From the NCBI GenBank assembly GCA_964639615.1, contig CAZXHH010000001.1, forward strand, positions 68,092 through 132,091: a stretch of DNA of 64,000 bases. Direction: 5' to 3'. A program made the translations under genes and the position numbers. Positions 27,830-44,693 of this stretch are shown here, in pieces. The DNA comes from Candidatus Woesearchaeota archaeon (GTDB taxonomy: Archaea > Nanobdellota > Nanobdellia > Pacearchaeales > GW2011-AR1). Within the stretch, counting starts at the first letter, position 1, and each line of letters opens with the position of its first letter. The notes below the pieces were generated by a model, which was not told the DNA's origin, did not search any database, and saw only the letters and a list, made by a program, of their open reading frames with translations.

Positions 27830-28615
27830 ATGAAAAAGAGAGAATATAAAATTATTCTGACAATTTTAATTCTTATATTTTTTACAATAAATTACAACAA
27901 TCTTGATAGCTTTGTAACAAAAAACTTTGATAATCAAGAAACAATTGTTGTTGAAAGAGTTATTGATGGGGATACGCTTGTTGATAGCGAAGGAATTCAT
28001 TACAGATTATTGGGAATTAATACTCCAGAAAAAGGAGAGCCTCTTTATTTAGATGCAAAAAAATTTCTTGAAGAAAAAACAATAAATCAAACAATAATTG
28101 TAGAAAAAACTAAAAAGGATAGATATGATAGAGAACTTGCATATTTTTATCTTGGAAAAGCAAATATTAATGAAGAAATTGTAAACAAAGGGTATGCAAA
28201 TTATTATTTTCCTGAAGGAAAGGATAGGTATTACTCAACTTTTTTGGATGCTTGGCTGAATTGCATAGATTCTAACATAAACTTGTGTGAAAAATCAGAA
28301 GATAAATGCTCTTCATGTATCCAATTAACAAAGTGGGATTTTGAAAACCAAGAGATTAGTTTTTACAATAAATGCTCTTTTGACTGTAATTTAAATGGTT
28401 GGACATTAAAAGACGAGGGAAGAAAAAAATTTGTTTTTGAAAACTATATATTAAAGGGCTTAAATTATGTTAATGTTATTGTTGAGAATAAAACTAATTC
28501 TGCAAATAATCTTTATTGGAAAAATGAAGAATATGTCTGGACCTCTTCAGGAGATAGTTTCTTTTTAAGAGATGGAGAAGGAAAGTTAGTGCTTTGGGGG
28601 ACTGAGAATTATTAA
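27830..28615 (+). CDS. Secreted staphylococcal-nuclease (SNase)-like nuclease with C-terminal lamin-tail-like domain
   Basis: Signal/TM N-terminus; VIDGDTLVDSEGIHYRLLGINTPE thermonuclease motif; C-terminal NGWTLKDEGRKKFVF LTD-like. Confidence 0.65.
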   Translation: MKKREYKIILTILILIFFTINYNNLDSFVTKNFDNQETIVVERVIDGDTLVDSEGIHYRLLGINTPEKGEPLYLDAKKFLEEKTINQTIIVEKTKKDRYDRELAYFYLGKANINEEIVNKGYANYYFPEGKDRYYSTFLDAWLNCIDSNINLCEKSEDKCSSCIQLTKWDFENQEISFYNKCSFDCNLNGWTLKDEGRKKFVFENYILKGLNYVNVIVENKTNSANNLYWKNEEYVWTSSGDSFFLRDGEGKLVLWGTENY

Positions 28616-28733: not shown

Positions 28734-29228
28734 TTACATCAATTCGCTACAATCTTCTGGAGGAATAATATAAATACTACCATATCCATTATCAACTATT
28801 GCTTTATTAACAAATAAATTATCTCCCCAATCGTTTACATAAACAAATCTCAATAATCTTCCGTAAGCATCTTTGTCTTTTAAAGAAGAATTAAAACTAA
28901 CTTCTTTGTATAAAATAAGTTCTCTAAGAAATGCTTTTGATTCTTCATAACCTTGTTCTTTTTTTTCTGGAGCATCTACACAGAGCAATCTAACTTTAAG
29001 CATTTTGTCTGTTGTTTCATCATAATATTCAAAAGTATCTCCATCAATTATTTTTACAACAGTATTATTATTTAGCTGTGATTTATTGTAAGCTTTTGGA
29101 AGAGAAGAAATAAATGCCACAATTAACAGAATAAACACAATAAAAACCATCCAATAAACTATCTTATCCCATTCTTTTTTAATTTTCAGCTCATCATTTG
29201 GAAATTGTGATTGATCCTCTTTTTCCAT
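28734..29228 (-). CDS. Membrane-anchored SNase-like nuclease
   Basis: N-terminal TM; VKIIDGDTFEYY...VRLLCVDAPEKKEQGY...YGRLLRFVYVND SNase motifs. Confidence 0.65.
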   Translation of the reverse strand: MEKEDQSQFPNDELKIKKEWDKIVYWMVFIVFILLIVAFISSLPKAYNKSQLNNNTVVKIIDGDTFEYYDETTDKMLKVRLLCVDAPEKKEQGYEESKAFLRELILYKEVSFNSSLKDKDAYGRLLRFVYVNDWGDNLFVNKAIVDNGYGSIYIIPPEDCSELM

Positions 29229-29353: not shown

Positions 29354-32300
29354 ATGGAGAAAAGGGAAAAGTGCTGGAAGTTATTTCTAATTAACATACT
29401 AATTTTAACACTAAGCTTTTCTTTTATTAGTGCTTCTACTTCACTAACAAGCATTAATGTTAATCCTTCAATTACAAATTCTAATCCAGTTCTAACTGTA
29501 ACGCTTAGTGAGAGTAATTCTTCATACCTAATTTCTGGTGCAGAATATTTTATTGATAGTGCTGGTGTAAGTGGAACAGGAAATAGTTTAACTGCTTCAG
29601 ATGGAGCATATGATGAACTAACTGAAGATACAAGTGCTAGTATAGATCTAACAGGTTTAAGTCAGGGCAGCCACACAGTTTATGCTCACGGATTAAATAA
29701 CAATTCTGAATGGGGTGCTTTTTCTACAGTCAGTTTTACAAAAGATACAATTATCCCTACACTAACCTCAATGCAGATTACTGGAGCATATGGTGCTACA
29801 AATAAAATTTCTCCTCAAAATGCAGATGGAAAGTATGATTCTGTTAGAATTATTATGAATTCAAGTGAATCTGTTGATTGGGGAAAAACATCAGTATTAA
29901 ATTCTACAGGACAGGAAATAAAATATTTCAATGGCCCTTCTGGTTATATTAATTCAAATATAGAAACTTGGGATGGAAAAAATAGTTCTGGAAATTATGT
30001 CCTTGATGGAGTTTACACAATTTATACAAATATAACAGACCAAGCAGGAAACTCAAATTTAATCTATGTGGGTTCAGTGATTATAGATAATACTGCTCCA
30101 ATTGGGACAATCACAAAAGGAACTCCTATAATAAGTAACAATGATTTAACACAAGAAATAACAATAAATTATAATGAAGTTATGGATACTTCTTATAGAC
30201 CACTGATTAACTTTACAAATAATATTGGAGAGATTAGAAGTACTGGAGGAAGTTGGAGTACAAATCAAATTTGGACAGAGAATTTCCTTGTTGAAGATGC
30301 AGATGAAGAAACAACAAACGTAATTATTTCTAGTTCATTAGCTAAAGACCTTGTTGAAAACTCAGAAGCTACTTCTATTTCAGCTTCTTTTTCTATTGAT
30401 ACAAAAGCTCCTGTTATCTCTAGTTTGCAAATTAATGCTTCAGATATAGAAATAAATAATGATAATGATGTAACAATTTCAGCAGACATTAGCGAAGGAA
30501 TGTCTACCCCAATAAATGTCTGGCTTGAAGGAAACTGGACTGGGACTTCTGCAAATAACACTTTAAGTTCTTCTTCAGGACATTATAGTTATACTATAAG
30601 CAAAACTCAACTTTCAAATCAGGAATATGTGGGATGGAGAATTTTTACAAGAGATTCTAGAGGAAATATTAGAAGTACAAGCATAAATGGTTTTTTAGTT
30701 AAAAATAGAGCTCCTTTATTTATTCCTTCTATAAATAATATGTCTTGGATTGAAGATGGAGGTTCAAAGACAATTAACTTATCTGATTATTTTTATGATT
30801 TAGATAAAGACATTCTTAATTATACTGCAACAGTTGTTTCTAACAGAGGACCAACATCAGATCCAAATCCTCTTGGGGGAATAACAGTTACAATAAACAA
30901 TGCAACAAAAATTGCAACAATTTCATCAACCTCAGATTGGAATGGTGATGGAACAATTATATTTTATGCTTGGGACTTTGTTGGAGGATACAATAGGAGC
31001 AATACAGTTTATGTAACAGTTATTGCTGATGATAATGAAGCTCCAACACTAACAAGTTCTTTGAGCCCAGTAAACTTCAGTGAAGATACAACTTTCTCTT
31101 TGCAATTATTCTGTGATCCAAATGACCCTGCACAAGTTTGCTTAAATTATAGATATGATGCATCATATATTGATTATAATTCAAATCTAACTGTATCTGT
31201 AAATCCTTCAACAGGACAGGTTACATTAAGTCCAAAATTAAATTGGAATGGGTTAACTTATGTTAAATTTCTTGCTGATGATAATGGAGTTCCTTTAGAA
31301 ACAGGAAGTTTAGTTGTTAGAGTAAATGTAACTCCTGTAAATGATAATCCTATATTAGACGCTCCTGATATAAGCATGATAGAAAATTCTGCTGCACCTT
31401 CTCCAATTAATTTGCTTTCTTATACAACGGATGTAGATAACCAATTAACTTCTATGGTTTATAATTTGGTTAGTCAATCAAATACAAGTTTAATTAATTG
31501 TAGCTTAAATGTAAATACAATAAACTGTGGAGCACCTGCATATAACAAATATGGAATTTCAGATTTAATAGTTAGTGTAATAGATGGAAGTGGTGGCAGT
31601 GATAGTCAAAAGATTACTATTGAAGTAAAAAAGAATCATGCTCCAACAATAAGATCATATTTTCCTGTTGAAAATCCTTTGATAAGAACTGGAAGGCCCC
31701 AGACTTTTGTACTTGTTGCTCAAGATGTTGATAATTTAACAGCTTTAAATTATGTCTGGAAAGTAGATGGAACAATTGTTCAGAATGGAATAGATAATAA
31801 TTATATATTTACACCTTCAGCTGAAAGCAATTATATTGTTAGTGCTGAAGTAAGTGACGAAGTTCCAAACACAGTAACAAAAAGCTGGACAGTTAAGGCA
31901 ACTACTTATCCAATTACAACAGAGTTTAATGGTGATGAAACAACAAATCTTTCAAATCCTTCTTTAGATTTAACAAATGTAAGTTTAGTTTTAGAAAATT
32001 CATACGGTAAAATTGAATTTTTATCTCCTGTTGATTTAACAAAGGCTTGGGACTTGGACAATAATGTTGAAATTTCTTCAAACGGATTAGTTGCTGTTAA
32101 TACTCAGTTATATCCTGCCTTAAATAAACCTGCAAGAATTACACTTTATGGATTGAGCTATAGTTCTTTACCTAAAGTTTATTATTCTTCGAGCTTCACA
32201 ACTTCTCCATTGACTGTTCAACAAGAATGTTCTTCACCTAGATGTAATTTACTCAATTATACTGCATTCCCTACATCTGCTGGAGAGGTTACATTTACTG

Positions 32301-33376
32301 TCTCTCAATTCAGTTCATATGCTGTTAAAGGAAGTGGAATTAATTATGATATTAACAAACTTGATTTAGACAAATGTGAAAACGGAGTCCAAGGAAATCT
32401 AACTGTTGAAATAAAAAATCCTGATGAGGATGAATCTTTTGGACCTGGAGCAGAAATTAAGATTAAATTAAAAGTATCAAACGATAATTCTTTTGATGAT
32501 AAATTCATAGCCAAAGGAATTTTATATAATTTAGATGAAGAAGATGAAGAGGAAACAGAAGAAAGTGATTCTGTTGAAATAGAAACAGAAGATTCAGAAA
32601 CAATTGAATTCTCATTAATTGTCCCAGAAGATATGGATGAAGAAGATGATTATGTTCTATTTGTTAAAGTCTATCAAAAAGGAGAAGAGGAAAATCAATG
32701 CAATTATCAAATAATTGATTTATCTCTTGAAAGAGAAGAACACAAAGTTATAATTAATGATATTGTTTCTGATTTAGAAATTAATACTGGGGAAAAATTA
32801 AACCTTGATATTGATTTAGAAAATATTGGAAGTTCAGACGAAGATGAAGCATATATCAAAATAACAAATAGCGAATTAAAATTAAATGAAAAAACAGATA
32901 CATTTGAAATTGAGAAATATGGTGACGATAATGAATTGACAATAAGCCATAGCATTTTAATTCCACAAAACGCAGCAGGAAAAGAATACACTTTAAGAGT
33001 AGAGGTATTTTATGAAGATGGAAGCACTTTCCAAAATTATATAATAAATGTAAATAATAAATCAATTATAAGTTATGTACCTACAGAAAACTTAATTTAC
33101 TTATCTTCTTCGCAGTCTTCAGGATCTGGAAGTTCTAGTCCTAAAACAATTACTGCATCAAAAACAACTATAACAGGAAAAATAACTGAAAAAGCAGAAG
33201 TTGAAGAAGAGGCTGCTCTTAATGTAAATCTAGATACAGAAGATAAAATAGCTTCTGAATTTAGTACAAATAAGAGTTCAGTAAAAGTAAATTATAATTA
33301 TCTTCCGATAGTGCTTGGTATCGGTATATTGATTTTTGTTTTTGCAATAGTATATCTTTTAATAAAGAAAAGATAA
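29354..33376 (+). CDS. Giant (1340 aa) surface protein: signal peptide, Ig/cadherin-like repeats, acidic segment, Ser/Thr linker, C-terminal TM anchor (S-layer/adhesin candidate)
   Basis: N-terminal signal peptide; PVNDNPILDAPD cadherin-like motif; dozens of N-x-S/T sequons; DEEDEEETEESD acidic run; SSSQSSGSGSSSPKT linker; LPIVLGIGILIFVFAIVYLLIKKR anchor. Confidence 0.6.
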   Translation: MEKREKCWKLFLINILILTLSFSFISASTSLTSINVNPSITNSNPVLTVTLSESNSSYLISGAEYFIDSAGVSGTGNSLTASDGAYDELTEDTSASIDLTGLSQGSHTVYAHGLNNNSEWGAFSTVSFTKDTIIPTLTSMQITGAYGATNKISPQNADGKYDSVRIIMNSSESVDWGKTSVLNSTGQEIKYFNGPSGYINSNIETWDGKNSSGNYVLDGVYTIYTNITDQAGNSNLIYVGSVIIDNTAPIGTITKGTPIISNNDLTQEITINYNEVMDTSYRPLINFTNNIGEIRSTGGSWSTNQIWTENFLVEDADEETTNVIISSSLAKDLVENSEATSISASFSIDTKAPVISSLQINASDIEINNDNDVTISADISEGMSTPINVWLEGNWTGTSANNTLSSSSGHYSYTISKTQLSNQEYVGWRIFTRDSRGNIRSTSINGFLVKNRAPLFIPSINNMSWIEDGGSKTINLSDYFYDLDKDILNYTATVVSNRGPTSDPNPLGGITVTINNATKIATISSTSDWNGDGTIIFYAWDFVGGYNRSNTVYVTVIADDNEAPTLTSSLSPVNFSEDTTFSLQLFCDPNDPAQVCLNYRYDASYIDYNSNLTVSVNPSTGQVTLSPKLNWNGLTYVKFLADDNGVPLETGSLVVRVNVTPVNDNPILDAPDISMIENSAAPSPINLLSYTTDVDNQLTSMVYNLVSQSNTSLINCSLNVNTINCGAPAYNKYGISDLIVSVIDGSGGSDSQKITIEVKKNHAPTIRSYFPVENPLIRTGRPQTFVLVAQDVDNLTALNYVWKVDGTIVQNGIDNNYIFTPSAESNYIVSAEVSDEVPNTVTKSWTVKATTYPITTEFNGDETTNLSNPSLDLTNVSLVLENSYGKIEFLSPVDLTKAWDLDNNVEISSNGLVAVNTQLYPALNKPARITLYGLSYSSLPKVYYSSSFTTSPLTVQQECSSPRCNLLNYTAFPTSAGEVTFTVSQFSSYAVKGSGINYDINKLDLDKCENGVQGNLTVEIKNPDEDESFGPGAEIKIKLKVSNDNSFDDKFIAKGILYNLDEEDEEETEESDSVEIETEDSETIEFSLIVPEDMDEEDDYVLFVKVYQKGEEENQCNYQIIDLSLEREEHKVIINDIVSDLEINTGEKLNLDIDLENIGSSDEDEAYIKITNSELKLNEKTDTFEIEKYGDDNELTISHSILIPQNAAGKEYTLRVEVFYEDGSTFQNYIINVNNKSIISYVPTENLIYLSSSQSSGSGSSSPKTITASKTTITGKITEKAEVEEEAALNVNLDTEDKIASEFSTNKSSVKVNYNYLPIVLGIGILIFVFAIVYLLIKKR

Positions 33377-34429: not shown

Positions 34430-35026
34430 ATGGAAAGTACTTATCTTATAAAACATCCTTCTCATGCACTTGTTGTTGAAGCAATTCAGACTCTCCCAGG
34501 AGAAATTGAAAGCATAAATTTGGAATTATTTGCTGATGGAGTTCAATTTCCAGAATATCCTGAAAATGAAGCAACAACACAGGGGTATTTGAATACATGC
34601 AAATATCAGAACATAATCCCATTTTCTAGCAAAAGAATAAGATGGAGCTTTAATGTCGAAGAACATATTCCTAAAAATACTGAAGCTATGCAGATGTATT
34701 TTTCTGGAGGAAGAACAAATAGGATATCTTTTGAAATATCTCAGGATTGGCAGTTTAAAGAAATTGATAAATTCAAAGAAATATTATTTCCTTCTCTTTT
34801 AAAAAATAACTACAAAATTTCATCTGGAGAAATTATTATGTCTGGCCATAAAACAGGTTCGCATCAAACTGAAGGATATGCTCCCGACTTAGCATTAAAG
34901 ATAAATTATGGTGAAAAAGGATTGGGGATTCTTGTAGACGATAATTATAGAACTGCTAAAGAAGAAAAACCAAAATATGAAAAGTGGTTTGAAGATTTAA
35001 AGACAAAATACAAAATAAGAGATTAA
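34430..35026 (+). CDS. Hypothetical protein
   Basis: 198 aa ORF, no recognisable motif. Confidence 0.35.
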   Translation: MESTYLIKHPSHALVVEAIQTLPGEIESINLELFADGVQFPEYPENEATTQGYLNTCKYQNIIPFSSKRIRWSFNVEEHIPKNTEAMQMYFSGGRTNRISFEISQDWQFKEIDKFKEILFPSLLKNNYKISSGEIIMSGHKTGSHQTEGYAPDLALKINYGEKGLGILVDDNYRTAKEEKPKYEKWFEDLKTKYKIRD

Positions 35027-35421: not shown

Positions 35422-36552
35422 ATGGGTGAAAAAGAGAAAGATGTTGTTGTTAATCCTTACCAAGTTGAAGGAGAAGTTAATTACGACAGACTTGTTAAAG
35501 AATTTGGATTAGAAAAAATTAACGAAGATATTCTAAAGAAAATTAAAAAGCAGACCGGGGAGCTTCATCCCATGCTGAGAAGAGGAATTATGTTTGCCCA
35601 TAGAGATTTAAATTGGATTTTAAATGAGTATGAAAAAGGGAATAAATTTTTCTTATATACTGGATGTGGACCTTCTGGACCAATCCATTTAGGACATTTA
35701 CAAATGTGGTATTTTACAAAATGGTTACAAGATAAATTTGATTGTGAATTGTATTTTCAGTTTACTGATGATGAAAAATTCCTATACAAAGAGAAATCTT
35801 ATGAAGAAATACAAAAATGGACTGAAGAAAATATGTTAGATGTTGCTGCAATTGGATTCAATCCAAAAAAAACACATTTTATCGTAGACACAAAACATGC
35901 TGGAATCATGTATCCTGAAGCTATAAAAATAGCAAAGAAAATAACTTTCTCAACAATTAAATCTAGTTTTGGTTTTACAGACAGCAACAATATTGGAAGT
36001 ATATTTTACACTTCTATGCAAGCTGTACCTGCAATTCTTCCTTCTGTTCTTAAAGGGAAAAATATTCCTTGTTTGATTCCATTGGGTGTTGATCAAGACC
36101 CCCACTTTAGAATTGCAAGAGATGTTTATCCTAAACTAGGATTTTTCAAACCTGCAATTATGCATAAGGTTATGTTCCCTTCTTTAGAAGGAATGAATGC
36201 TGTAATGAGTAGTTCAAAAGGTGCTGCATTAATCACTGCAAACGATACTCCGGCTGAAGTAAAAAATAAAATAAACAAATATGCTTTTTCTGGAGGAAGA
36301 GATACAATTGAAGAGCACAGAAAATTAGGGGGAAATCCAGAAATAGATGTTTCATTCCAATATTTGAAGCACTTTTTTGAAGAAGATGATAAAAAATTAG
36401 AAGAAATTGAAAAAGAGTACAAATCAGGAAAATTATCAACAGGGGAATTAAAAAAATATGCCATTGAAAAGATAAATAAATTTTTAGCTCAACATCAAGA
36501 GAGAAGAAAGAATGCTAAAAAATTAATTCCACAATATATGTTAAAAGTATAA
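35422..36552 (+). CDS. trpS: Tryptophanyl-tRNA synthetase, archaeal/eukaryal type
   Basis: GCGPSGPIHLGHL (HIGH), KMSSSKGAALI (KMSKS), 376 aa. Confidence 0.85.
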   Translation: MGEKEKDVVVNPYQVEGEVNYDRLVKEFGLEKINEDILKKIKKQTGELHPMLRRGIMFAHRDLNWILNEYEKGNKFFLYTGCGPSGPIHLGHLQMWYFTKWLQDKFDCELYFQFTDDEKFLYKEKSYEEIQKWTEENMLDVAAIGFNPKKTHFIVDTKHAGIMYPEAIKIAKKITFSTIKSSFGFTDSNNIGSIFYTSMQAVPAILPSVLKGKNIPCLIPLGVDQDPHFRIARDVYPKLGFFKPAIMHKVMFPSLEGMNAVMSSSKGAALITANDTPAEVKNKINKYAFSGGRDTIEEHRKLGGNPEIDVSFQYLKHFFEEDDKKLEEIEKEYKSGKLSTGELKKYAIEKINKFLAQHQERRKNAKKLIPQYMLKV

Positions 36553-36553
36553 G

Positions 36554-37021
36554 ATGATAAAAAGAGGGGATAAAAAAGCACAGTTTTACTTTATGGCTAC
36601 AATAATAATAGTAGCTTTGCTAATAAGCATTGTTGTTACAATTAATTATTCTTTAAGAACCAAATCTTATGAAGCAGAAGAAATTGCAAAAGATTTAACA
36701 ATTGAAACAGAAAAAGTTTTGGATTATGATACAATTCATTCAACAAATGAATTAGAAGATTTTGCAAAAGTTTATTCTAGATATGTTGGACAAGATAAAG
36801 AGATTTATTTTATTTTTGTAGATAATGATGGAAGTTCTGAAGCTTTTAGATATGTTGGAGAAAATAAAGTGGATTTTACCTCTAGTTTAGCAGTTGAAGG
36901 AAACGAAATTCAATTTATTATGGATAATAATACCTACAAATTTAATCTTAAGGAAGGAAAGAATTTGTATTTTCTTTTAATTTATGAATCTAAAGGGGAA
37001 AAATATGTATTTTCAGGATAA
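36554..37021 (+). CDS. Pilin-like protein (class III signal peptide)
   Basis: MIKRGDKKAQFYFMATIIIVALLISIVV N-terminus; first gene of pilus cluster. Confidence 0.5.
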   Translation: MIKRGDKKAQFYFMATIIIVALLISIVVTINYSLRTKSYEAEEIAKDLTIETEKVLDYDTIHSTNELEDFAKVYSRYVGQDKEIYFIFVDNDGSSEAFRYVGENKVDFTSSLAVEGNEIQFIMDNNTYKFNLKEGKNLYFLLIYESKGEKYVFSG

Positions 37022-38492
37022 AAGAAAAAGAGGAATAAGTATTGTAGTGGGGTATGTTTTATTAGTAACCTTTGCAATTGTAATCGGAGTAATAGTTTAT
37101 CAATGGATGAAAAGCTATGTCCCTCAGGAAGAAATTAATTGTCCTGATGGTTCCTCAATTTTTTTAGAAGATTATTCATATAATTGCGATACAGAAATTT
37201 TAACTTTGTATTTGAAGAATAATGGAAGATTCAGTCTTGGAGGATATTTTATTTATGTTACTAATAAAGAAGAAGCAAAATTAGCCACAATAGATATTTC
37301 AAAAAATAATACAGACCCTAATGCGATATTAGTTCCTACAGGAATTAAATTCGGAGGAATTGGTTCTTTAAATTATCTTGAAGCTGGACAGGAAGAAGTA
37401 GATTATTTTAATTTAACAGGCATAAATCAAATTTATTCTATTGAAATTTTACCTATAAGATGGCAGGAAGAAAAGAATAAACAAATTTTAGCAACTTGTA
37501 AAACAGTAAAAGTAAGAGAAGAAGTTAAATGTAAGGGAGTTGCTGGCTCATCTTCGCAATGTGTTTTCCCTGTTATAAGTCCTTGTACAGGATTAGAATG
37601 TGGAACTATTGCAAATGGAAGTTGTGGAGACATAATATGTGCACCAAATAATTGTGATGCGGGAGAACATTGTGGTGGAGGAATTTGTGTATTAGATACT
37701 TGTACTGGTGCTCCTGTTCCAAATGACAAAGATTCTCTTTGCGGAATTTATGAATGTGGATTTGTTGCAAATGGAAGCTGTGGAAATGTTTTCTGTGGAG
37801 ATAATAATGGTGCTTGCATTGCTCCTGAAACATGTGATGCTGCAACACATACATGTGAATGTGCTACAGAAAGTGATGCAACATTCTGTACAAGATTAGG
37901 AGCAGAGTGTGGAACTTTAACAGGAACAGATAATTGTGGTGTATTAAGATTAAATGTAAATTGCGGAGGATGTGATGCAGATGAAACTTGTAATAATAAT
38001 ATATGTGAGTGTGTTCCTGAAACTAATGTTCAATTCTGTACAAGATTGGGAGTGCAATGTGGAAGTTTATCTGGAACAGATAATTGTGGAAATTCTAGAA
38101 CAGTAAGCGAATGTGGGCCTTGCTCAGGAGTACAAGTTTGTAATAGTGGTATTTGTGTAACTCCTTCTACATGTAATGGAACTTGGGTAAAGTCTCCTCC
38201 AGAAACTGTTGAATGCGATGGAACTCCATTACCTCCTCATTGTCTTGCTGGATGTAGCTGTGAAGCAGGATATGATTCAAGCGGTGGTGGAGGATGTTGG
38301 ATTTCTGGAACAGGTGCAAGTTGCCAAGCTCATTGTATTTCATTAGGATACACTCAAATTCCTGTTGGAAGTTGTAGACAAAATCAAGCTCAATGTAATA
38401 GCTTCTGTCCTGGAATTATTCCTGGAGTTCTTGAAACAGGAGGAAATCAGTGGTGTACAGCTCCTACAATAAATTGTTGTTGTTGTCAATAA
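37005..38492 (+). CDS. Pilin-like protein with ~330-aa cysteine-rich tandem-repeat C-terminal domain
   Basis: MYFQDKRKRGISIVVGYVLLVTFAIVIGVIVY class III SP; >60 Cys; repeated modules CGxxANGSCGxxxC and FCTRLGxxCGxLxGTDNCG (150-nt DNA repeat 37884/38034); ends NCCCCQ. Confidence 0.55.
   Translation: MYFQDKRKRGISIVVGYVLLVTFAIVIGVIVYQWMKSYVPQEEINCPDGSSIFLEDYSYNCDTEILTLYLKNNGRFSLGGYFIYVTNKEEAKLATIDISKNNTDPNAILVPTGIKFGGIGSLNYLEAGQEEVDYFNLTGINQIYSIEILPIRWQEEKNKQILATCKTVKVREEVKCKGVAGSSSQCVFPVISPCTGLECGTIANGSCGDIICAPNNCDAGEHCGGGICVLDTCTGAPVPNDKDSLCGIYECGFVANGSCGNVFCGDNNGACIAPETCDAATHTCECATESDATFCTRLGAECGTLTGTDNCGVLRLNVNCGGCDADETCNNNICECVPETNVQFCTRLGVQCGSLSGTDNCGNSRTVSECGPCSGVQVCNSGICVTPSTCNGTWVKSPPETVECDGTPLPPHCLAGCSCEAGYDSSGGGGCWISGTGASCQAHCISLGYTQIPVGSCRQNQAQCNSFCPGIIPGVLETGGNQWCTAPTINCCCCQ
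37884..38160 (+). repeat. In-frame ~150-nt tandem coding repeat (FCTRLG...CGxxTGTDNCG modules)
   Basis: ttctgtacaagattaggagcagagtgtggaactttaacaggaacagataattgtgg (37884) vs ttctgtacaagattgggagtgcaatgtggaagtttatctggaacagataattgtgg (38034). Confidence 0.7.
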
Positions 38493-38497
38493 TTAAA

Positions 38498-39019
38498 ATG
38501 AAATCAAAAAAAGCTATTAGTGCAATTGTAGAATATGTTTTGCTTGTTACATTTGCTCTCGTAACTGGAGTTATTGTTTATTCTTTCATGAAAACATATG
38601 TTCCGCAAGAAGAATTAAACTGTCCTGATGGTTCCTCTCTTCAAATAAGCGAATATAATTACGATTGTGCAACAAACATGCTTTCAATTAAATTCACAAA
38701 TTCCGGAAGATTTAGTTTAGGCGGATATTTTATTTATACTACAAATAAACCAAATCAAGAATTAGCAACAATAGATTTAACAAAAAATAATACAGATATT
38801 AATTCGAGATTATCTCCAAATGGAATAAAATTTGGATTAATAGGAGTGGATAATTCTCTTGAGCCAAATCAAGAAGAAACAGATACATATAATTTAACAG
38901 GAATTTCTCAAGCATATTCAATACAAATTGTACCTATAAGATGGCAGGAAAAAAAGAACACTCAAATATTAGTCAGCTGTAAAAACGAAAAAATCAAAAA
39001 AACAATAGAATGTGCTTAA
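38498..39019 (+). CDS. Pilin-like paralog of the N-terminal domain of 37005..38492 (no Cys-rich extension)
   Basis: MKSKKAISAIVEYVLLVTFALVTGVIVY...YVPQEELNCPDGSS...GRFSLGGYFIY...LATID..KNNTD...PIRWQEKKN collinear with upstream gene residues 1-170. Confidence 0.55.
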   Translation: MKSKKAISAIVEYVLLVTFALVTGVIVYSFMKTYVPQEELNCPDGSSLQISEYNYDCATNMLSIKFTNSGRFSLGGYFIYTTNKPNQELATIDLTKNNTDINSRLSPNGIKFGLIGVDNSLEPNQEETDTYNLTGISQAYSIQIVPIRWQEKKNTQILVSCKNEKIKKTIECA

Positions 39020-39056
39020 TCAAAGAATTTAAAAATAATAGAGAATATAAAATAAA

Positions 39057-39539
39057 ATGAAAAAGAGGGCAAAGGGATTATCTCCTGTAATTGCAACTGT
39101 TCTTCTGGTTGCCATGGTTATCTCAATTGCGCTTATAGTATTTTTCTGGATTAAAGGTATGACTGAGGAAGCTGTTACAAAATTTGGAGATCAAAATATT
39201 CAATTAGTATGTGGCCAAGTTGCATTTGAAGCAAGCTACGACCAGGACACACTTTATATTACTAATCCTGGAAGTGTTCCAATATTTGGAATGAATGTTA
39301 AAGTTATTGGGGATGGAGAACATTCCACATTAGATTTAAGAGAAGATTCAATTACCTGGCCAGAAGCAGGTTTAAATCAGGGAGGAGTTTTTTCTAGTGA
39401 CCCTGCATCAGATTCTGAGTTAGTATTTAGTGAAGGGCAGGATATAGTTCTTGTTCCTGTACTTATTGGAGAAACGTCAACTGGAAGAAAAACTTATGTT
39501 TGTGATGAGAATCAATATGGACAAGAAATTACAATATAA
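39057..39539 (+). CDS. Archaeal type IV pilin (class III signal peptide)
   Basis: MKKRAKGLSPVIATVLLVAMVISIALIVFFW canonical archaeal prepilin N-terminus. Confidence 0.65.
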   Translation: MKKRAKGLSPVIATVLLVAMVISIALIVFFWIKGMTEEAVTKFGDQNIQLVCGQVAFEASYDQDTLYITNPGSVPIFGMNVKVIGDGEHSTLDLREDSITWPEAGLNQGGVFSSDPASDSELVFSEGQDIVLVPVLIGETSTGRKTYVCDENQYGQEITI

Positions 39540-40053
39540 GAATAAAGGGCTCTCAACTGTTATTGCTACTGTTTTACTTATTGCTTTAGTTATGGCAACT
39601 TCGACAATTGTCTGGGTCTCAACGAATAAATTAATAGACAGCAAAACCAAAGGAACTCAAGAATGTTTTAAAATAGCCTCTTCTGAAAACGTTGTTTTAA
39701 ATGAAGAGTATACTTGTTTTAACCCTACAACTGATGAAGTTCAATTTTCTTTAGATATTGGAGATGTTGAAATAGATGGTGTTGTTATTTCAATTTTAGT
39801 CGGAGGAAATTCAAAAGTTTTCACTTTGACAAATACTCTCCAAGTAATTAGCGATATAAGGCCTTACAAAGGGGTGGTTGGAGATGCAGTTAAACTTCCT
39901 GGAAAAAATGAGGGAAAAACATATATTGCGAGTGGATTTACAGAATCCGAAGTAATACAATGGATAAAAATTGCTCCTATAATCGATGATAAACAGTGTG
40001 ATATGACTGATGAAGTTTACAAAGTTGTTGATTGTAATCTGCTAGTAAATTAA
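39517..40053 (+). CDS. Archaeal type IV pilin (class III signal peptide)
   Basis: MDKKLQYKNKGLSTVIATVLLIALVMATSTIVWV; start overlaps upstream gene end by 23 nt. Confidence 0.6.
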   Translation: MDKKLQYKNKGLSTVIATVLLIALVMATSTIVWVSTNKLIDSKTKGTQECFKIASSENVVLNEEYTCFNPTTDEVQFSLDIGDVEIDGVVISILVGGNSKVFTLTNTLQVISDIRPYKGVVGDAVKLPGKNEGKTYIASGFTESEVIQWIKIAPIIDDKQCDMTDEVYKVVDCNLLVN

Positions 40054-40092: not shown

Positions 40093-40641
40093 ATGAAAAA
40101 AGGTGATTTGAAGAAATCTTTAGTTGGTTGCAAAGGGCAAGTTTGGATTGAAACTGTAATTTACCTTCTTATAGCACTGGTTATGATTAGTTTAGTATTA
40201 GCGTTTGTAAAACCTAAAATTGAAGAACTTCGAGATCAAGCAATAATTGACCAATCAATTGAAATACTAAAAAATATTGACAATTCTATACTTACAATGG
40301 GTGAAGCTGGAAACAAAAGAGTTCTTGAAATTGGAATTAAAAAAGGTACGCTTACAATTGATTCTATAAATGATAATATAATTTTTGAAATTGACAGCAG
40401 ATACTTATATACTGAAGTAGGTCAAACAGTTAATTTAGGAAATATTCAAGCAACTACAGAAGATAAAGGGAAGAACAATCTTGTAACATTAAAAAGAGAT
40501 TTTAGTGAAGAATATAATTTAACTTACAAGGGAGAAGAGAATGCTAAAACCTTTCCCAAATCATCAACTCCTTACACAATCTCTTTGACTAATAAGGGAG
40601 AGTTTTCAAATAAAATAAAGATTGATTTTGATATCCAATAA
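40093..40641 (+). CDS. Pilin-like protein (class III signal peptide)
   Basis: MKKGDLKKSLVGCKGQVWIETVIYLLIALVMISLVLAFV. Confidence 0.5.
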   Translation: MKKGDLKKSLVGCKGQVWIETVIYLLIALVMISLVLAFVKPKIEELRDQAIIDQSIEILKNIDNSILTMGEAGNKRVLEIGIKKGTLTIDSINDNIIFEIDSRYLYTEVGQTVNLGNIQATTEDKGKNNLVTLKRDFSEEYNLTYKGEENAKTFPKSSTPYTISLTNKGEFSNKIKIDFDIQ

Positions 40642-40642
40642 A

Positions 40643-42199
40643 ATGCCAGTAAAAAGTACAGCAATAAAAGACTATCCAAGACCAAAAATAAACTTTAATC
40701 CAGTTGTTCCTCCATTAAAGAGAATTAAAGATAAAACTAAAGTTGATGTAAGATATTGCTTAATCTCTCCTTATACTTTCGTGCATATTCATTGGGATCC
40801 TAAGGTTTATGAAATTGTATATGATATTGAAGAGCCAATTTTAACAGATGAAGAAGAAAAACAGAAAAATGAAATTATGCTTGCAATGAATAATATCATT
40901 GATTTTGAAACAGTTGTTGAAAAAGAAAGAGAAAAACTTCTTGAATATATTGATAAAAGATTCAAAATACTTGCAATAGAACTTGGAATGGAATTATCTT
41001 ATGAAACTTACAAAAAAATATTTTATTACTTATGTAGAGATTTTATGGGTTTTAATGAAGCAGAACCTCTTTTAAGAGATTATTTTGTGGAAGATATTGA
41101 ATGTAATGGTGCAAATTCTCCAATATATATTGTTCACAGAATTTATAGAAATATGAAAACTAGCTTAGTATTTAATGATATGGATAGACTTCAAAGTTTT
41201 GTTGAAAAACTTGCACAAAGATGTGGAAAATATATTTCGTATGCGAAGCCAATTTTAGATGGAAGTCTTCCAGATGGTTCCAGAGTTAATGCTACATATA
41301 CGAAGGATATTACAAGTAAAGGTCCAACATTCACAATCAGAAAGTTCACAAAAACTCCGTGGACTCCTCCTCAATTAATTGCTTTTGGAACATTAAGTCC
41401 TGAAATTCTTGCATATTTGTGGTTATTAGTTCAGTATAAAATGAATATCTTAATTACAGGTGGAACCTCTGCAGGAAAAACAACTCTTCTTAATGCTATT
41501 GCTTTCTTTATCCCTCCTGAATCAAGAGTGGTTTCAATTGAAGATACACGTGAATTAAATCTTCCAAGAGACAACTGGCTACCTAGTGTTGCGAGAAGTT
41601 CTACAGGTGTTGGTACAACAGGAGAAATTAGCTTGTTTGATTTATTGAGAAGTTCATTCAGACAAAACCCAGATTATGTAATTGTGGGAGAAGTTAGAGG
41701 TGCAGAGGCATCAGTATTATTCCAGGGAATGGCTTCAGGACACTCATCAATCAGTACAATTCACGCAGATTCTGTTGATACATTAATTAAAAGATTAGAA
41801 ACTCCTCCAATTGAACTTTCACCTACGCTTCTTAATGTTCTTGATTGTGTATGTATTATGACTCATGCAATAGTAAATAAAGAAGAAACCAGAAAATTAA
41901 AAGAAGTTGTTGAAATAATGAACGTAACTCTTGACGGTATTGCTCTTACAAATACTCCATTTATGTGGAATGCGCTTGAAAATGAATTCTATTCTAAGAA
42001 AAATAGTAAAATTTACGAAAAAATTAGAAAAAGATATGGTATTAAGGTTGAAGACTTAGAAATTGAATTTAGAAAAAGAGTTCAATTATTATATAATTTA
42101 TATCAAAGAAAAATATTCAAATTTGAAGAAGTTCAGGATATAGTAAATGAATACTACAAAAAACCTCAGGAAATTTTGAAAAAATACGGGGTAGAATAA
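40643..42199 (+). CDS. Type IV pilus / archaellum-family assembly ATPase (PilB/FlaI/TadA superfamily)
   Basis: Walker A GGTSAGKTT, Asp box, Walker B DYVIVGEVRG, His box HSSISTIHA; 518 aa. Confidence 0.85.
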   Translation: MPVKSTAIKDYPRPKINFNPVVPPLKRIKDKTKVDVRYCLISPYTFVHIHWDPKVYEIVYDIEEPILTDEEEKQKNEIMLAMNNIIDFETVVEKEREKLLEYIDKRFKILAIELGMELSYETYKKIFYYLCRDFMGFNEAEPLLRDYFVEDIECNGANSPIYIVHRIYRNMKTSLVFNDMDRLQSFVEKLAQRCGKYISYAKPILDGSLPDGSRVNATYTKDITSKGPTFTIRKFTKTPWTPPQLIAFGTLSPEILAYLWLLVQYKMNILITGGTSAGKTTLLNAIAFFIPPESRVVSIEDTRELNLPRDNWLPSVARSSTGVGTTGEISLFDLLRSSFRQNPDYVIVGEVRGAEASVLFQGMASGHSSISTIHADSVDTLIKRLETPPIELSPTLLNVLDCVCIMTHAIVNKEETRKLKEVVEIMNVTLDGIALTNTPFMWNALENEFYSKKNSKIYEKIRKRYGIKVEDLEIEFRKRVQLLYNLYQRKIFKFEEVQDIVNEYYKKPQEILKKYGVE

Positions 42200-42419: not shown

Positions 42420-43757
42420 ATGGCAAAAAAAGATATGAGAATAATAGCTGAATTAAAGGAAGTCATTTCAAAAGAGAAAAAGATAGTTTCTGAACTTACT
42501 TCTATTCAAAAATATTATAATGAAGCGAGCGAAGGGGAAAAAGGTATGCTAGATTCTCAAATTAAATCCATGAAGGATAATTTGAAACAAACAAATTCTC
42601 AAATTCCAGTTATTTTAGATAAAATACTTACTGCAAAAAAATTAAATCCGGATTGGGAATCTACAGCAGAAAGAGCAGAAGACAAGTGGGCAGATAAAAA
42701 TAAACTTACAAATAAAAATGCTGCTGCAAAACCAAAACAACAAATTCTTCCTTATACTGAAAGAGGATATTCTCTAAGGGAATTGAAACCAACTGTTCTA
42801 GAAAAACAAACAATTAAAAGAATGAAAGAAAAAGACATCAAAAAAGAAGAAATAAAAGAACAGCAAGCTAATGTTTATGTTAAATTTGCTAACAAACTAT
42901 TCTCTAACTACTCTGAGCAGATGGTTAAAGATAAAACATTTGAATTAGAGAGGGATTTAATAAAAGCAAATCTCCCATATACTGAAAGAAGTTATATCTC
43001 AATGATTTTTCTTACTACACTAATAGCAATCGTTGCTAGTATAATTATTGCTCTTTTTTTCCTATTTTTCAATTTAAGTGCATCAATGCCAATAATATCT
43101 AAAGCAACAGATATTGCTCCAAGAATTTGGAAAGTTCTTCTTATTGTTTTATTCGCCCCAATTTTAACTTTTATTTTTATGTATACTTATCCTGGATTGG
43201 AAAGAGGAGCATCAGAATCAAGAATAAATGAAGAATTGCCTTTTGCAACAATTCACATGTCTGCTATTTCTGGTTCTATGATTGACCCTAGCAAGATATT
43301 TGATATTATAATTACAACTCATGAATATCCTTATCTTGAAAAGGAATTCAAAAAACTCCTTAATGAAATAAATCTCTATGGATATGATTTAGTAAGTGCT
43401 TTAAGAACAAGTTCATTTAATTCTCCAAGTAAAAAACTTGCGGAACTATTTAATGGTCTTGCAACAACAATAAATTCTGGAGGAGATTTGCCAGCTTTCT
43501 TTGATAAAAGATCACAGACATTATTATTTGAAAACAGACTTGAACAAGAAAAAAAGACAAAGGCCGCAGAAACTTTTATGGATATGTACATTAGCTTAGT
43601 TGTTGCTGCACCAATGATTTTAATGATTTTACTTATGATGATGAAGATTAGTGGACTTGGAATTTCAATGAGTACTCAAATGATCACAGTTGTTATGGTA
43701 ATGGCTGTTGCAGGTATAAATGCAGTCTTCCTTACCTTCCTTCAATTAAAAAGATAA
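42420..43757 (+). CDS. TadC/FlaJ-like membrane platform protein (T2SSF domain)
   Basis: Long cytoplasmic coiled N-region then TM helices and LATTINSGGDLPAFFDKRSQTL T2SSF-like motif. Confidence 0.6.
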   Translation: MAKKDMRIIAELKEVISKEKKIVSELTSIQKYYNEASEGEKGMLDSQIKSMKDNLKQTNSQIPVILDKILTAKKLNPDWESTAERAEDKWADKNKLTNKNAAAKPKQQILPYTERGYSLRELKPTVLEKQTIKRMKEKDIKKEEIKEQQANVYVKFANKLFSNYSEQMVKDKTFELERDLIKANLPYTERSYISMIFLTTLIAIVASIIIALFFLFFNLSASMPIISKATDIAPRIWKVLLIVLFAPILTFIFMYTYPGLERGASESRINEELPFATIHMSAISGSMIDPSKIFDIIITTHEYPYLEKEFKKLLNEINLYGYDLVSALRTSSFNSPSKKLAELFNGLATTINSGGDLPAFFDKRSQTLLFENRLEQEKKTKAAETFMDMYISLVVAAPMILMILLMMMKISGLGISMSTQMITVVMVMAVAGINAVFLTFLQLKR

Positions 43758-43823: not shown

Positions 43824-44693
43824 ATGGAGATAAAAAACGCACATATAATTGGAATAGTAGTAGGAGTTATAATCGTAGGTTTGTCTTTTTTACTTAGGGG
43901 AACTGATTACTTCTTTTTAACTATAGGAGTAGGAGTTCTTTCTGGAGCCTTGCCTTTTGTAATTAGTTTGATTGCTGAGACAAAGGCTGAAAATGAAAAG
44001 GAAGAGATGTTCTTAGAATTTACAAGAAATCTTGTTGAAAGTGTAAAAACAGGAACTCCTATTAGTAGAAGCATTATTAATCTTAAAGGAAAATCATTCG
44101 GTGTTTTAGGCCCGCATATTAAAAAACTTGCAAATCAGATTTCTTTAGGTATACCAATAAATTCTGCACTTCAAGTTTTTGCTAAAGATGTAGATAATCA
44201 GACTGTATCAAGAACAATAATCTTAATTGGACAAGCTGAAAGAGCAGGAGGAGAGATTGGAGAAATTCTTGAGGCAGTTGCAGAAGCTGTAAGTATTTCA
44301 GATAAGATTAAGAAAGAAAGAAAGGCTGCAATTTCAACACTAGTAGTCCAGGGCTATATTATTTTCTTTGTGTTCATGATGATTATTCTTATAATGCAAT
44401 TTCAAATTCTTCCAATGGTTTCTGGTATTGCAGATTTAGGAGCAATTGGGGGAGGAAATTTTGGTGGAGTCGCAATAAGTGGAAATGCAGGTATTGAAGA
44501 AGATGAAATGTCTAAATCTTTCCTATATCTTCTTTTAATTCAGGGTTTTTTTACAGGATTAACTGTGGGTAAATTAGGTGAAGGCTCAATAAAAGCTGGA
44601 ATAAAACACTCTTTTGCTTTAATGGTAATTTCTTTTACAGTTTCTTCACTAGCGAATATAATTTTTGGTGGAGCAGCTGCAGCAGCAGCTTAA
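43824..44693 (+). CDS. Second TadC/FlaJ-like membrane platform protein (T2SSF domain)
   Basis: TM helices flanking LANQISLGIPINSALQVFAKD...GQAERAGGEIGEILEAVAE T2SSF-like segment. Confidence 0.55.
   Translation: MEIKNAHIIGIVVGVIIVGLSFLLRGTDYFFLTIGVGVLSGALPFVISLIAETKAENEKEEMFLEFTRNLVESVKTGTPISRSIINLKGKSFGVLGPHIKKLANQISLGIPINSALQVFAKDVDNQTVSRTIILIGQAERAGGEIGEILEAVAEAVSISDKIKKERKAAISTLVVQGYIIFFVFMMIILIMQFQILPMVSGIADLGAIGGGNFGGVAISGNAGIEEDEMSKSFLYLLLIQGFFTGLTVGKLGEGSIKAGIKHSFALMVISFTVSSLANIIFGGAAAAAA

Follow-up and report, generated by a model that had tools for sequence, protein, structure and literature searches.

The gene at 37005..38492 (+), referred to here as gene A, probably encodes a modular type IV pilin, a minor subunit with which a DPANN archaeon displays a binding module. 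It is located in a window of 64,000 nt from a Candidatus Woesearchaeota archaeon (contig CAZXHH010000001.1). The N-terminal 176 aa of the encoded protein are an archaeal pilin module, in which a signal of class III shape precedes a core helix and a beta-sandwich; this module is homologous to the neighboring Pilin_N pilin. A linker (aa 177-185) connects it to six further modules with 8, 8, 8, 8, 6 and 10 cysteines, the last of which is a terminal cap domain. A pilus subunit had been predicted at this locus, and this reading is supported by the signal shape, the fold predicted by AlphaFold2 (AF2), profile homology, and an operon with ATPase and platform genes.

Gene A is a single unbroken ORF (36984/37005..38492, +) with a 495-aa product when read from the ATG at 37005. 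This start agrees with the homologs and creates a 17-nt overlap with the upstream gene, of the same length as in three syntenic loci. The N-terminus, MYFQDKRKRG followed by ISIVVGYVLLVTFAIVIGVIVY, combines basic residues, a glycine and a hydrophobic helix. The class III leader peptide is predicted to cover M1-G10 (37005..37034, +), with a putative cleavage site after KRKRG. Archaeal prepilin signals take this form, on which the class III motif call is based for gene A as well as for its downstream paralog, gene B. The leader is followed by the hydrophobic N-terminal alpha-helix (aa 11-38; 37035..37118, +), which is modeled by AF2, has a near-identical counterpart in gene B and is presumed to be the filament-core assembly interface. 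The beta-sandwich pilin domain (aa 39-176; 37119..37532, +), delimited by AF2, hhalign and a PDB profile search, contains four conserved cysteines (C46, C61, C165 and C176). The extension comprises residues 177-495 (319 aa), contains 48 Cys and 46 Gly, and ends in CCCCQ. The prepilin N-terminus proposed for this gene is present in its class III shape. A cysteine-rich ectodomain with repeated modules and a CCCC run is found as well, although the whole protein has 52 cysteines instead of more than 60 and the extension has 319 aa instead of about 330.

The assignment of the N-terminal module to the pilins is based on structure prediction and profile comparison. In the AF2 model of gene A, a helix spans residues 8-38 (pLDDT 90-97) and the strands of the beta-sandwich lie within residues 52-173 (pLDDT about 80-92). 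This combination of a class III signal shape with an N-terminal helix and a beta-sandwich is shared with the archaeal Pilin_N, UpsA and arch_flag_Nterm pilins. An hhalign comparison of the gene A family with the TIGR02537-positive family of the pilin gene at 39057 yielded a probability of 95.7% (E 9.6e-9, 108 columns). When the gene A family profile was searched against the PDB, the solved archaeal pilus subunit 8fk7_A was retrieved at E 5.4e-5; further archaeal pilins rank below it, over the significance threshold. Pfam reports no PF07790 (Pilin_N) match on gene A itself, NCBIfam pilin models stay below threshold (NF046073, 13.8 bits vs. a cutoff of 130), a phmmer search against PDB sequences returned noise only, and a Foldseek search of the PDB with the full-length model found only generic Ig-like sandwiches (E of at least 2e-3). 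There is also no N_methyl match (IPR012902 / PF07963) on gene A, which is explained by its archaeal-type signal.

The operon of gene A encodes six pilin-like proteins, one T2SSE ATPase and two T2SSF platform proteins, and its gene order is kept in three other genomes (loci L001, L003 and L004). The first gene (36554..37021, +) encodes a conserved 155-aa operon partner with a pilin-like N-terminus, KKAQFYFMATIIIVALL, and overlaps the start of gene A by the 17 nt mentioned above. Its orthologs in the three syntenic loci are 43-58% identical and occupy the same position with the same overlap. Downstream of genes A and B lies the Pilin_N / arch_flag_Nterm pilin of 160 aa (39057..39539, +; TIGR02537 33.6 bits, cutoff 20; PF07790 20.7 bits). 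No other pilin of the operon is as well conserved (orthologs in L001, L003 and L004 are 58-71% identical), and this one is a candidate for the major subunit. Two further pilin-like proteins are encoded at 39517..40053 (+), with the N-terminus KNKGLSTVIATVLLIALV and a start codon inferred from the L031 gene call, and at 40093..40641 (+), with a bacterial-style N-terminus (KG followed by QVWIE). These are followed by the type IV pilus assembly ATPase of the T2SSE family (40622..42199, +; Pfam PF00437, E 9.7e-33) and the two T2SSF / TadC-like platform proteins (42420..43757, +, Pfam PF00482, E 3.2e-14; 43824..44693, +, Pfam PF00482, E 1e-14). A 1340-aa anchored surface protein adjoins the operon in all syntenic loci. 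Archaeal 'system 1' type IV filament loci carry two platform genes along with a single ATPase gene (bioRxiv 10.64898/2026.04.22.720090; Makarova et al. 2016, PMC4858521). The locus studied here resembles them in having several pilin genes beside one T2SSE ATPase and a split platform protein, in a DPANN archaeon. A Cys-module pilin, in contrast, is reported for none of the 'system 1' loci described in these sources.

Gene A might instead encode a cell-surface protein whose pilin-like N-terminus serves only as a membrane or pseudopilus anchor, with the ectodomain in an envelope coat and not on an extended pilus. Some archaeal class III proteins are indeed not filament subunits. The sub-threshold Pfam and NCBIfam pilin models are compatible with this view, as are the lack of a prepilin peptidase (Peptidase_A24) among the ORFs of at least 110 aa in the 64-kb window, the awkward fit of a large appendage into filament packing, and the anchored surface protein next to the operon. 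However, gene A overlaps or abuts pilin genes and lies upstream of the ATPase and platform genes at every locus, its core helix is near-identical to that of gene B and homologous to that of the Pilin_N neighbor, and the same cap domain is found on bona fide N_methyl pilins in bacterial type IV pilus operons. A function as a mere surface anchor is therefore considered unlikely.

Gene B (38498..39019, +) encodes a 173-aa protein that consists of the pilin module only, with four cysteines. NCBI lists this protein on a contig of 358,663 bp, of which the 64-kb window covers only a part. EYVLL replaces GYVLL, and the N-terminus, KSKKA followed by ISAIVEYVLLVTFALVTGVIVY, has the class III signal shape. 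The sequence blocks reported to be shared by the two genes (YVPQEE-NCPDGSS, GRFSLGGYFIY and PIRWQE) were all found, and residues 6-176 of A are 62% identical to B over 171 aa (about 72% at the DNA level). A and B form a family of their own (GYVLL...YVPQE...PIRWQ) that falls below the curated PF07790 and NF046073 thresholds. About 60 short homologs were found. The original prediction of a recent duplication does not hold at this level of identity. A and B are not sisters in the family tree, pairs of a long and a short pilin also occur in distant genomes, and the syntenic locus L001 carries the long form without a short paralog. Similarly, gene B had been regarded as the plain structural version, but it is the Pilin_N-type gene at 39057 that is best conserved and present in all loci; B is therefore not clearly the shaft subunit.

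The same observation weighs on the idea that gene A itself encodes the major shaft subunit of a bottle-brush pilus, with a stalk on every subunit and B diluting or replacing it. Such a pilus would suit the position of gene A as the operon's first canonical pilin gene, the occurrence of the long form without a short paralog in L001, and the two tandem long forms of L004. Nevertheless, this arrangement is quite improbable given the conserved 160-aa pilin and the wide differences among the C-terminal modules of close relatives, which are typical of accessory and not of core subunits. Modular pilins of bacteria, moreover, are minor subunits (PMC8179133). For gene A, a low-abundance or tip position would be the more natural one, since a shaft could hardly accommodate a 319-aa appendage on all of its subunits.

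The appendage begins with two type-1 Cys modules (aa 186-232 and 233-284; 37560..37856, +) with 8 Cys each and the motif CG..ANGSCG...C. Two type-2 modules follow (aa 285-334 and 335-384; 37857..38156, +), also with 8 Cys each, and share the motif FCTRLGxxCGxxxGTDNCG. They correspond to the 150-nt tandem repeat that had been noticed in the DNA and was recovered here (37849-37939 vs. 37999-38089, 150 nt apart, 79% identical). A second repeat pair (37596-37656 vs. 37752-37812) has a spacing of 156 nt and is 75% identical. Tandem Repeats Finder reported no array in gene A because the copies of both pairs are too diverged. At the protein level, the two FCTRLG units have 27 of 51 residues in common and the two ANGSCG units 23 aligned residues. 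C-terminal subdomain 1 (aa 385-436; 38157..38312, +) has 6 Cys and the motif CNGTW...VECDG...GGC; alignments A1 and A4 show that most of the long homologs retain it, and it is modeled with a pLDDT of about 53-79. With an MSA of the bacterial repeats described below, AF2 folds the type-2 modules into compact domains of a helix and a hairpin (pLDDT 94-98). The type-1 modules are poorly covered in the hybrid alignment A3.

Type-1 modules are found in many DPANN homologs. Within the pilin family, a type-2 HMM detects two copies only in A and in homolog P0001 and one copy each in P0010, P0012 and P0071. Outside the family, it detects 1-12 copies in bacterial proteins, many of them with lipoprotein-like N-termini and two with Myxococcales or Myxococcaceae names. 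Over two-unit windows, the type-2 units of A share 40-58% identity with these uncurated Myxococcota repeats (FCxRLGxxCG...DNCG). Unlike gene A, however, the bacterial repeat proteins are mostly not pilins. In their extracellular tandem units of about 50 aa with 8 Cys, the modules resemble the DUF4215 / Myxococcus cysteine-rich repeat proteins (PF13948). Nonetheless, neither gene A nor its three separately searched Cys segments match PF13948 even at E<=10; some homologs in the pilin family do match, among them P0038 (E 1.2e-9). Neither Pfam nor NCBIfam has a match to any of the three Cys segments, nor to the bacterial proteins with type-2 repeats. No curated family or solved fold fits the Cys extension. 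An EGF-, granulin- or anaphylatoxin-like nature had been suggested for the Cys region, but no profile or fold match to these or any other known disulfide-rich fold was obtained for the modules. Recent acquisition of the Cys modules from high-GC bacteria was considered and rejected. Their codon usage is native, with a GC3 of about 0.1 and a strong preference for TGT, and thus gives no sign of recent transfer.

The cysteines point to disulfides and not to metal ligands, as far as their number and spacing can be read. Every Cys module of gene A has an even count, the total is even in 54 of 59 long family members, and the terminal run of the cap tracks the cysteines further upstream: caps ending in CC have 6 (8 of 9), those ending in CCC have 8 (151 of 157) and those ending in CCCC have 10 (5 of 6). 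If all cysteines were paired, the appendage would contain 24 disulfides. The region had been described as either disulfide-knotted or metal-binding; it is disulfide-rich, while the even counts per module and the covariation of the terminal run argue against metal binding. In metallothionein-like proteins, cysteines are free ligands, so that pairing is not required. A metallothionein-like or redox-active region that binds metals or transfers electrons would suit the high Cys content (~15% of the ectodomain), the CCCC run at its end and an organism that, judging by the sources of its relatives, probably comes from low-oxygen groundwater or sediment. This is very improbable in view of the even counts, the one-for-one gain of terminal and upstream cysteines, the compact fold of the type-2 units, and a spacing that is that of extracellular disulfide-rich repeats without His or Asp ligand patterns.

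There is virtually no chance that gene A is an assembly or frameshift artefact in which a pilin gene was fused with an independent Cys-rich ORF, as the continuous ORF with the identical junction recurs in Logan assemblies of other runs (L033, SRR10083294, 0 mismatches to window positions 37498-40019; L031/P0001, SRR16308653, P0001 being 96% identical to gene A over its full length) and dozens of homologs that are 30-50% identical have this fusion as well.

The architecture of gene A recurs in about 30 homologs or more. The pilin module with varying C-terminal modules was found in dozens of Nanoarchaeota, Pacearchaeota and Woesearchaeota genomes. Alternative modules on the same type of carrier are Laminin_G_3, a lectin fold (homologs P0031, P0035 and P0037), DUF1554, a beta-helix and a non-Cys module. 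A comparison of relatives for variation in repeat number had been suggested, and homologs P0003 and P0004 are identical except for the presence or absence of one 51-aa type-1 module. Between two strains, DNA identity is 89% in the pilin module but 99.7-100% in the remainder of A, in gene B and in the gene after it, with a breakpoint at about 37601. These sequence comparisons indicate that the stalk varies among strains via module gain and loss as well as recombination. A literature search found no paper on this pilin family, its modules or its cap. In this sense the type had rightly been called undescribed; the modular-pilin principle, however, is known in bacteria, and the architecture is common in DPANN metagenomes.

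The terminal cap domain (aa 437-495; 38313..38492 including the stop codon, +) has 10 Cys and ends in CCCCQ. It comprises about 55 aa with the pattern C-x3-C...C-x6-C...C...CCC, and AF2 models it with only moderate confidence (pLDDT 65-83 in model 1 and lower in model 2). A C-terminal profile search retrieved 201 cluster representatives at E<=1e-3. The Cys-run end is present in 121 of the 145 new cap-profile representatives examined, and the cap is nearly always located at the extreme C-terminus. Among the best 150 matches, 66 have bacterial and 26 archaeal class III N-termini. The Pfam N_methyl model (PF07963) scores above its cutoff on the cap proteins P0154, P0165 and P0200. Using a degenerate DNA pattern for CTGGxxADTCCC, genome matches were found in Woesebacteria, Daviesbacteria, WWE3, Paceibacterota, Woesearchaeota, Nanoarchaeota and Altiarchaeota. 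Pilins of CPR bacteria carry 1-3 copies of the cap behind Pro/Thr linkers and are encoded in type IV pilus operons; in L005 and L028, the cap genes directly follow T2SSE and T2SSF. The cap is also found at the C-terminus of a GH5 cellulase (P0229), in a position typical of a carbohydrate-binding module. The recently described CPR 'Pam' pilus is unrelated; its assembly proceeds via donor-strand exchange and involves chaperones.

We infer from its C-terminal position, the 1-3 copies on CPR pilins and the GH5 context that the cap may be the working part of the protein, a module that binds a ligand on host cells or on surfaces, perhaps a glycan. As it is common to the DPANN pilin and to CPR pilins, it may be a shared attachment device. 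A more far-reaching, tentative proposal is that the cap is an undescribed pilus-tip binding domain, exchanged between CPR bacteria and DPANN archaea as the two radiations of ultrasmall episymbionts, that serves both as a common device for grasping host cells or glycans, with the Cys stalk tuning reach and specificity; we regard this as possible but doubtful.

Taken as a modular pilin, the gene A product would be cut by a prepilin peptidase after Gly10, and the processed helix would insert into the filament made by the operon machinery, probably at the tip or as a rare subunit. The appendage would form a rigid stalk that holds the cap at its distal end, where the cap could attach to such a ligand. 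The architecture and genomic context thus suggest an adhesin role. Among characterized systems, a close parallel is offered by the modular pilins of Streptococcus sanguinis (Raynaud et al. 2021, PMC8179133), in which the extra module is of the vWA (PilB) or lectin (PilC) type. As in the bacterial modular pilins described there, a small N-terminal pilin module is followed by a short linker and a C-terminal effector module, many different modules are grafted onto one carrier (including Laminin_G_3 in the gene A homologs), and adhesion from the filament is the proposed role. The survey of modular pilins in that study used the bacterial IPR012902 N-methylation motif as its defining feature and leaves archaea unmentioned (PMC8179133). 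The carrier of gene A, in contrast, is an archaeal class III pilin, and its modules are uncurated disulfide-rich mini-domains in series instead of one globular domain. The large tip-located minor pilins and tip adhesins of bacterial type IV pili (CofB, TcpB, GspK and PilY1) are similar in that an additional domain is displayed distally on the filament by a carrier that is pilin-like or associated with the tip, but they have no sequence or fold relation to gene A. Beta-rich or propeller folds make up the additional domains there, in place of disulfide mini-domains.

A central open question is how DPANN archaea and CPR bacteria locate their hosts and stay attached to them, with pili as the prime candidates. 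The locus supplies testable candidates, namely a pilin with a defined distal domain that recurs in both radiations. The type-1, type-2 and cap modules are three uncurated domain families that deserve profile models. If the cap is the ligand-binding part, it would be usable as an expressed probe for hosts or receptors, and archaea as well as a new class of disulfide mini-domains would join the modular-pilin concept.

The gene under study (gene A) is a single ORF of 495 aa at window positions 37005..38492 (+). The ATG at 37005 is its likely start codon, since the 17-nt overlap with the upstream gene for a 155-aa protein, which terminates at 37021, is identical in three syntenic loci of other genomes. 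The N-terminus reads MYFQDKRKRG followed by ISIVVGYVLLVTFAIVIGVIVY. A leader (aa 1-10), a hydrophobic helix (aa 11-38), a beta-sandwich pilin domain with 4 Cys (aa 39-176) and a linker (aa 177-185) are followed by two copies of each of two kinds of Cys module, with 8 Cys per copy: type 1 (aa 186-232 and 233-284, motif CG..ANGSCG) and type 2 (aa 285-334 and 335-384, motif FCTRLGxxCG...DNCG). A CNGTW...GGC subdomain with 6 Cys (aa 385-436) and a terminal cap with 10 Cys (aa 437-495) complete the protein. All units have an even number of Cys. The C-terminal extension (aa 177-495) contains 48 Cys and 46 Gly and ends in CCCCQ; the whole protein contains 52 Cys, not the more than 60 of the original prediction. 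The 150-nt DNA repeat described there was recovered (37849-37939 and 37999-38089, 79% identity), together with a second pair at 156-nt spacing (37596-37656 and 37752-37812, 75% identity). Neither pair was detected by TRF.

AlphaFold2 with a 41-sequence family alignment gave a confident helix (8-38) and beta-sandwich for the N-terminal part (pLDDT 80-97) and moderate values for the type-1 modules and the C-terminal domain (pLDDT about 65-83). In a second model, restricted to aa 177-495 and with bacterial repeat units added to the alignment, both type-2 units reached pLDDT 94-98, each with a short helix and two hairpins.

The signal of A has the archaeal class III shape, and we take KRKRG plus the hydrophobic stretch to be the corresponding motif. 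A pilin profile built from 58 short family members matched the family of the Pilin_N-type gene at 39057..39539 (+) in the same operon (95.7% probability, E 9.6e-9), over 108 columns that extend past the helix. The product of 39057..39539 itself scores 33.6 bits against NCBIfam TIGR02537 (archaellin/type IV pilin N-terminal domain; cutoff 20). The 58-member profile also matched 8fk7_A, a solved archaeal filament subunit (E 5.4e-5), and the E values of the remaining archaeal pilins it matched were all above significance. A itself stays below the curated thresholds of Pfam Pilin_N and NCBIfam UpsA, and no Peptidase_A24 was found among the window ORFs of 110 aa or more; that A is an envelope-anchored protein which never enters a filament is nevertheless an unlikely reading.

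The operon, as read, begins with a tRNA-synt_1b gene (35422..36552), taken as TrpRS, and continues with the 155-aa protein, A, its paralog (gene B), three more pilin-like genes and the genes for a T2SSE ATPase and two T2SSF platform proteins. Three other loci, from a Nanoarchaeota MAG (L001), GCA_040961015.1 (L003) and a JGI metagenome contig (L004), show the same gene order. This layout, a single ATPase plus a split platform protein, characterizes 'system 1' of archaeal type IV filaments, which is present in DPANN (bioRxiv 10.64898/2026.04.22.720090). Signal shape, fold, profile matches and pilus operon thus bear out the predicted pilus subunit with a Cys-rich domain: A is a pilin-like subunit whose disulfide-rich display domain falls outside all curated families. 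A class III peptidase is predicted to cut after Gly10, and the helix would then enter the filament built by the adjacent machinery. A would be a minor subunit, probably located at the tip, with the disulfide modules as a stiff stalk and a cap that may bind a ligand, possibly a glycan, on a host cell or surface.

Another pilin-like gene of the window (40093-40641) has a predicted mature N-terminus QVWIE and a weak GspG match (E 0.09). Glu at position 5 is a hallmark of bacterial pilins, found here within an archaeal operon. Just upstream of the pilus operon, a 198-aa ORF without family match (34430-35026) shares only 61% DNA identity with the same position in L031 (run SRR16308653), where the flanking genes share 94-99%; the gene is either hypervariable or has been replaced. 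Further upstream, a 1340-aa surface protein (29354-33376) has Ig-, cadherin- and PKD-like matches, a low-complexity stretch of acidic character and a transmembrane anchor at its C-terminus; in L001, L003 and L004 the pilus operon is likewise preceded by a similar giant gene. Two staphylococcal-nuclease-like proteins, one fused to a Lamin Tail Domain, are encoded at 27830-28615 and 28734-29228; in L001, an SNase gene with this domain likewise adjoins the giant protein gene. The window also encodes an SLT lytic transglycosylase domain (13799-14596, E 9e-17) within an otherwise archaeal genome, whose product could act on bacterial peptidoglycan, a 580-aa Dockerin_1 protein (60656-62398), and a ferric-reductase/NOX-like membrane flavoprotein (2557-3870) beside an ApbE flavin transferase (1734-2567).

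Gene B (38498..39019 (+), 173 aa) shares 62% identity with residues 6-176 of A, and the longest DNA match between the two genes has 72% identity. A low-resolution neighbour-joining tree built from 127 pilin modules intersperses long and short forms and does not place A and B as sisters, so that B is not the recent duplicate originally assumed. About 60 short homologs were found. L003 carries a long and a short gene, L004 two long and one short, and L001 a long gene only, whose product P0002 is the closest non-strain full-length homolog of A (43% identity). Where the short paralog is expected, L001 (9302-9717) has about 320 nt of non-coding sequence, and a masked N run then hides the beginning of the following pilin gene. 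Among the pilins, conservation across loci is highest for the product of 39057..39539 (58-71% identity), which is more likely the shaft subunit; A and B would then be accessory pilins. A role of A as a decorated shaft subunit is correspondingly improbable.

The Cys of A follow the pattern expected for paired disulfides. Among the long family members, 54 of 59 carry an even total of Cys; among the short forms, the count is exactly 4 in 55 of 62. In the cap, the terminal run predicts the number of Cys in the last ~60 residues: 6 for CC (8/9), 8 for CCC (151/157) and 10 for CCCC (5/6). The extra partner Cys lies in QCN[SN][FY]C in the window protein and in the four other CCCC members of the first search set. 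Judging from these counts, every terminal-run Cys appears to have a partner, which argues, indirectly, against free thiolate ligands or lipidation. Given the even totals and the tracking of cap Cys by the terminal run, the metal-binding option is not retained on present evidence, and a metal-binding or redox role of the Cys region is very improbable.

An artefactual fusion can be dismissed, as window 37498-40019 is matched exactly by a Logan assembly of a different run (L033, SRR10083294), a further run yields P0001, a full-length allele with 96% identity, and roughly 30 or more homologs share the architecture at 30-50% identity. The proposed fusion of pilin and Cys-rich region is hence real, and its reproduced junction speaks against a separate Cys-rich ORF created by a sequencing frameshift.

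Among relatives, the A-type N-terminal module carries varied C-termini. Cys modules and cap form the C-terminus of most members; others bear Laminin_G_3 lectin-like domains (P0031, P0035, P0037), DUF1554 (P0043) or a non-Cys domain (P0021), and the 713-aa P0046 has a precomputed PF22842 match, taken as a beta-helix. Repeat number varies as well, since P0003 (430 aa) and P0004 (379 aa) show zero mismatches and differ solely by one 51-aa type-1 module. Between the window and L031, the pilin module and linker (37030-37601) share 89% DNA identity, with changes mostly at third codon positions, whereas the type-2 modules, the C-terminus, gene B and gene 39057 share 99.7-100%. A is thus a mosaic between two near-identical strains, with a recombination breakpoint near the module boundary, and its carrier and cargo differ in recent history. 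The family fits the idea of one carrier with many modules established for bacterial modular pilins (Raynaud et al. 2021, PMC8179133), a survey that used the bacterial N-methylation motif to define its set and does not mention archaea. Of the supposedly undescribed architecture, the lack of a curated family match holds, whereas A belongs to a widespread DPANN family that fits this known concept. A literature search found no published description of the family.

Type-1 modules are widespread in the DPANN family. The type-2 unit HMM, in contrast, finds two copies only in A and P0001 and single copies in P0010, P0012 and P0071 within the pilin family; outside it, bacterial proteins carry 1-12 copies, many with lipoprotein-like N-termini, and two carriers bear the names Myxococcales and Myxococcaceae. 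P0074, a bacterial protein of 609 aa from an ENA contig, combines a TadE-like N-terminus (AATLEYVVLILIV) with four downstream type-2 Cys repeats, so the unit may also be carried by bacterial Tad-type pseudopilins. Codon usage of the Cys modules is wholly native (GC3 about 0.1), and any transfer would therefore be old.

The profile of the C-terminal domain was searched against 1.84 billion cluster representatives and matched 201 proteins at E<=1e-3. The cap pattern in the terminal ~55 aa is C-x3-C-x9-11-C-x6-C-x13-15-C-x8-9-CCC, and the Cys run lies <=12 residues from the C-terminus in 121 of 145 new representatives examined. Among the best 150 of the 201 matches, 66 have a bacterial prepilin signal (x-F-[ST]-L-I-E) and 26 archaeal class III signals, and several others are truncated versions of these same signal-bearing proteins. 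The Pfam N_methyl cutoff is passed by P0154, P0165 and P0200. Bacterial carriers have 1-3 caps, with Pro/Thr-rich linkers between or before them in several examined. P0229 is a GH5 cellulase with the cap at its C-terminus, the usual place of carbohydrate-binding modules in such enzymes.

A degenerate DNA pattern for CTGGxxADTCCC identified 26 loci in species-representative genomes, including Woesebacteria, Daviesbacteria, WWE3, Paceibacterota and other Patescibacteria on the bacterial side and Woesearchaeota, Nanoarchaeia, Nanoarchaeota, Altiarchaeota and one Methanobacteriota MAG on the archaeal side. In the CPR loci L005 and L028, cap pilins lie immediately 3' of T2SSE and T2SSF amid other pilin-like genes, which match N_methyl in L028. 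In each of the CPR loci L005, L010, L014, L015 and L028, one or two cap pilins directly follow the PilB-like and PilC-like genes. Several of these MAGs are labelled Gammaproteobacteria or Pseudomonadales; these labels look wrong given 37-40% GC and CPR-like pilus operons. DPANN and CPR caps share 43-51% identity over ~51 aa with a CPR reference cap (P0189). The literature search found no published description of the cap domain. An earlier study noted an enrichment of CPR genomes in divergent pilins, and likewise in disulfide enzymes of the MdbA/VKOR type that might fold them, which fits the picture. Bacterial and archaeal pilins alike carry the cap, and its sharing between CPR and DPANN pilins is what most deserves follow-up.
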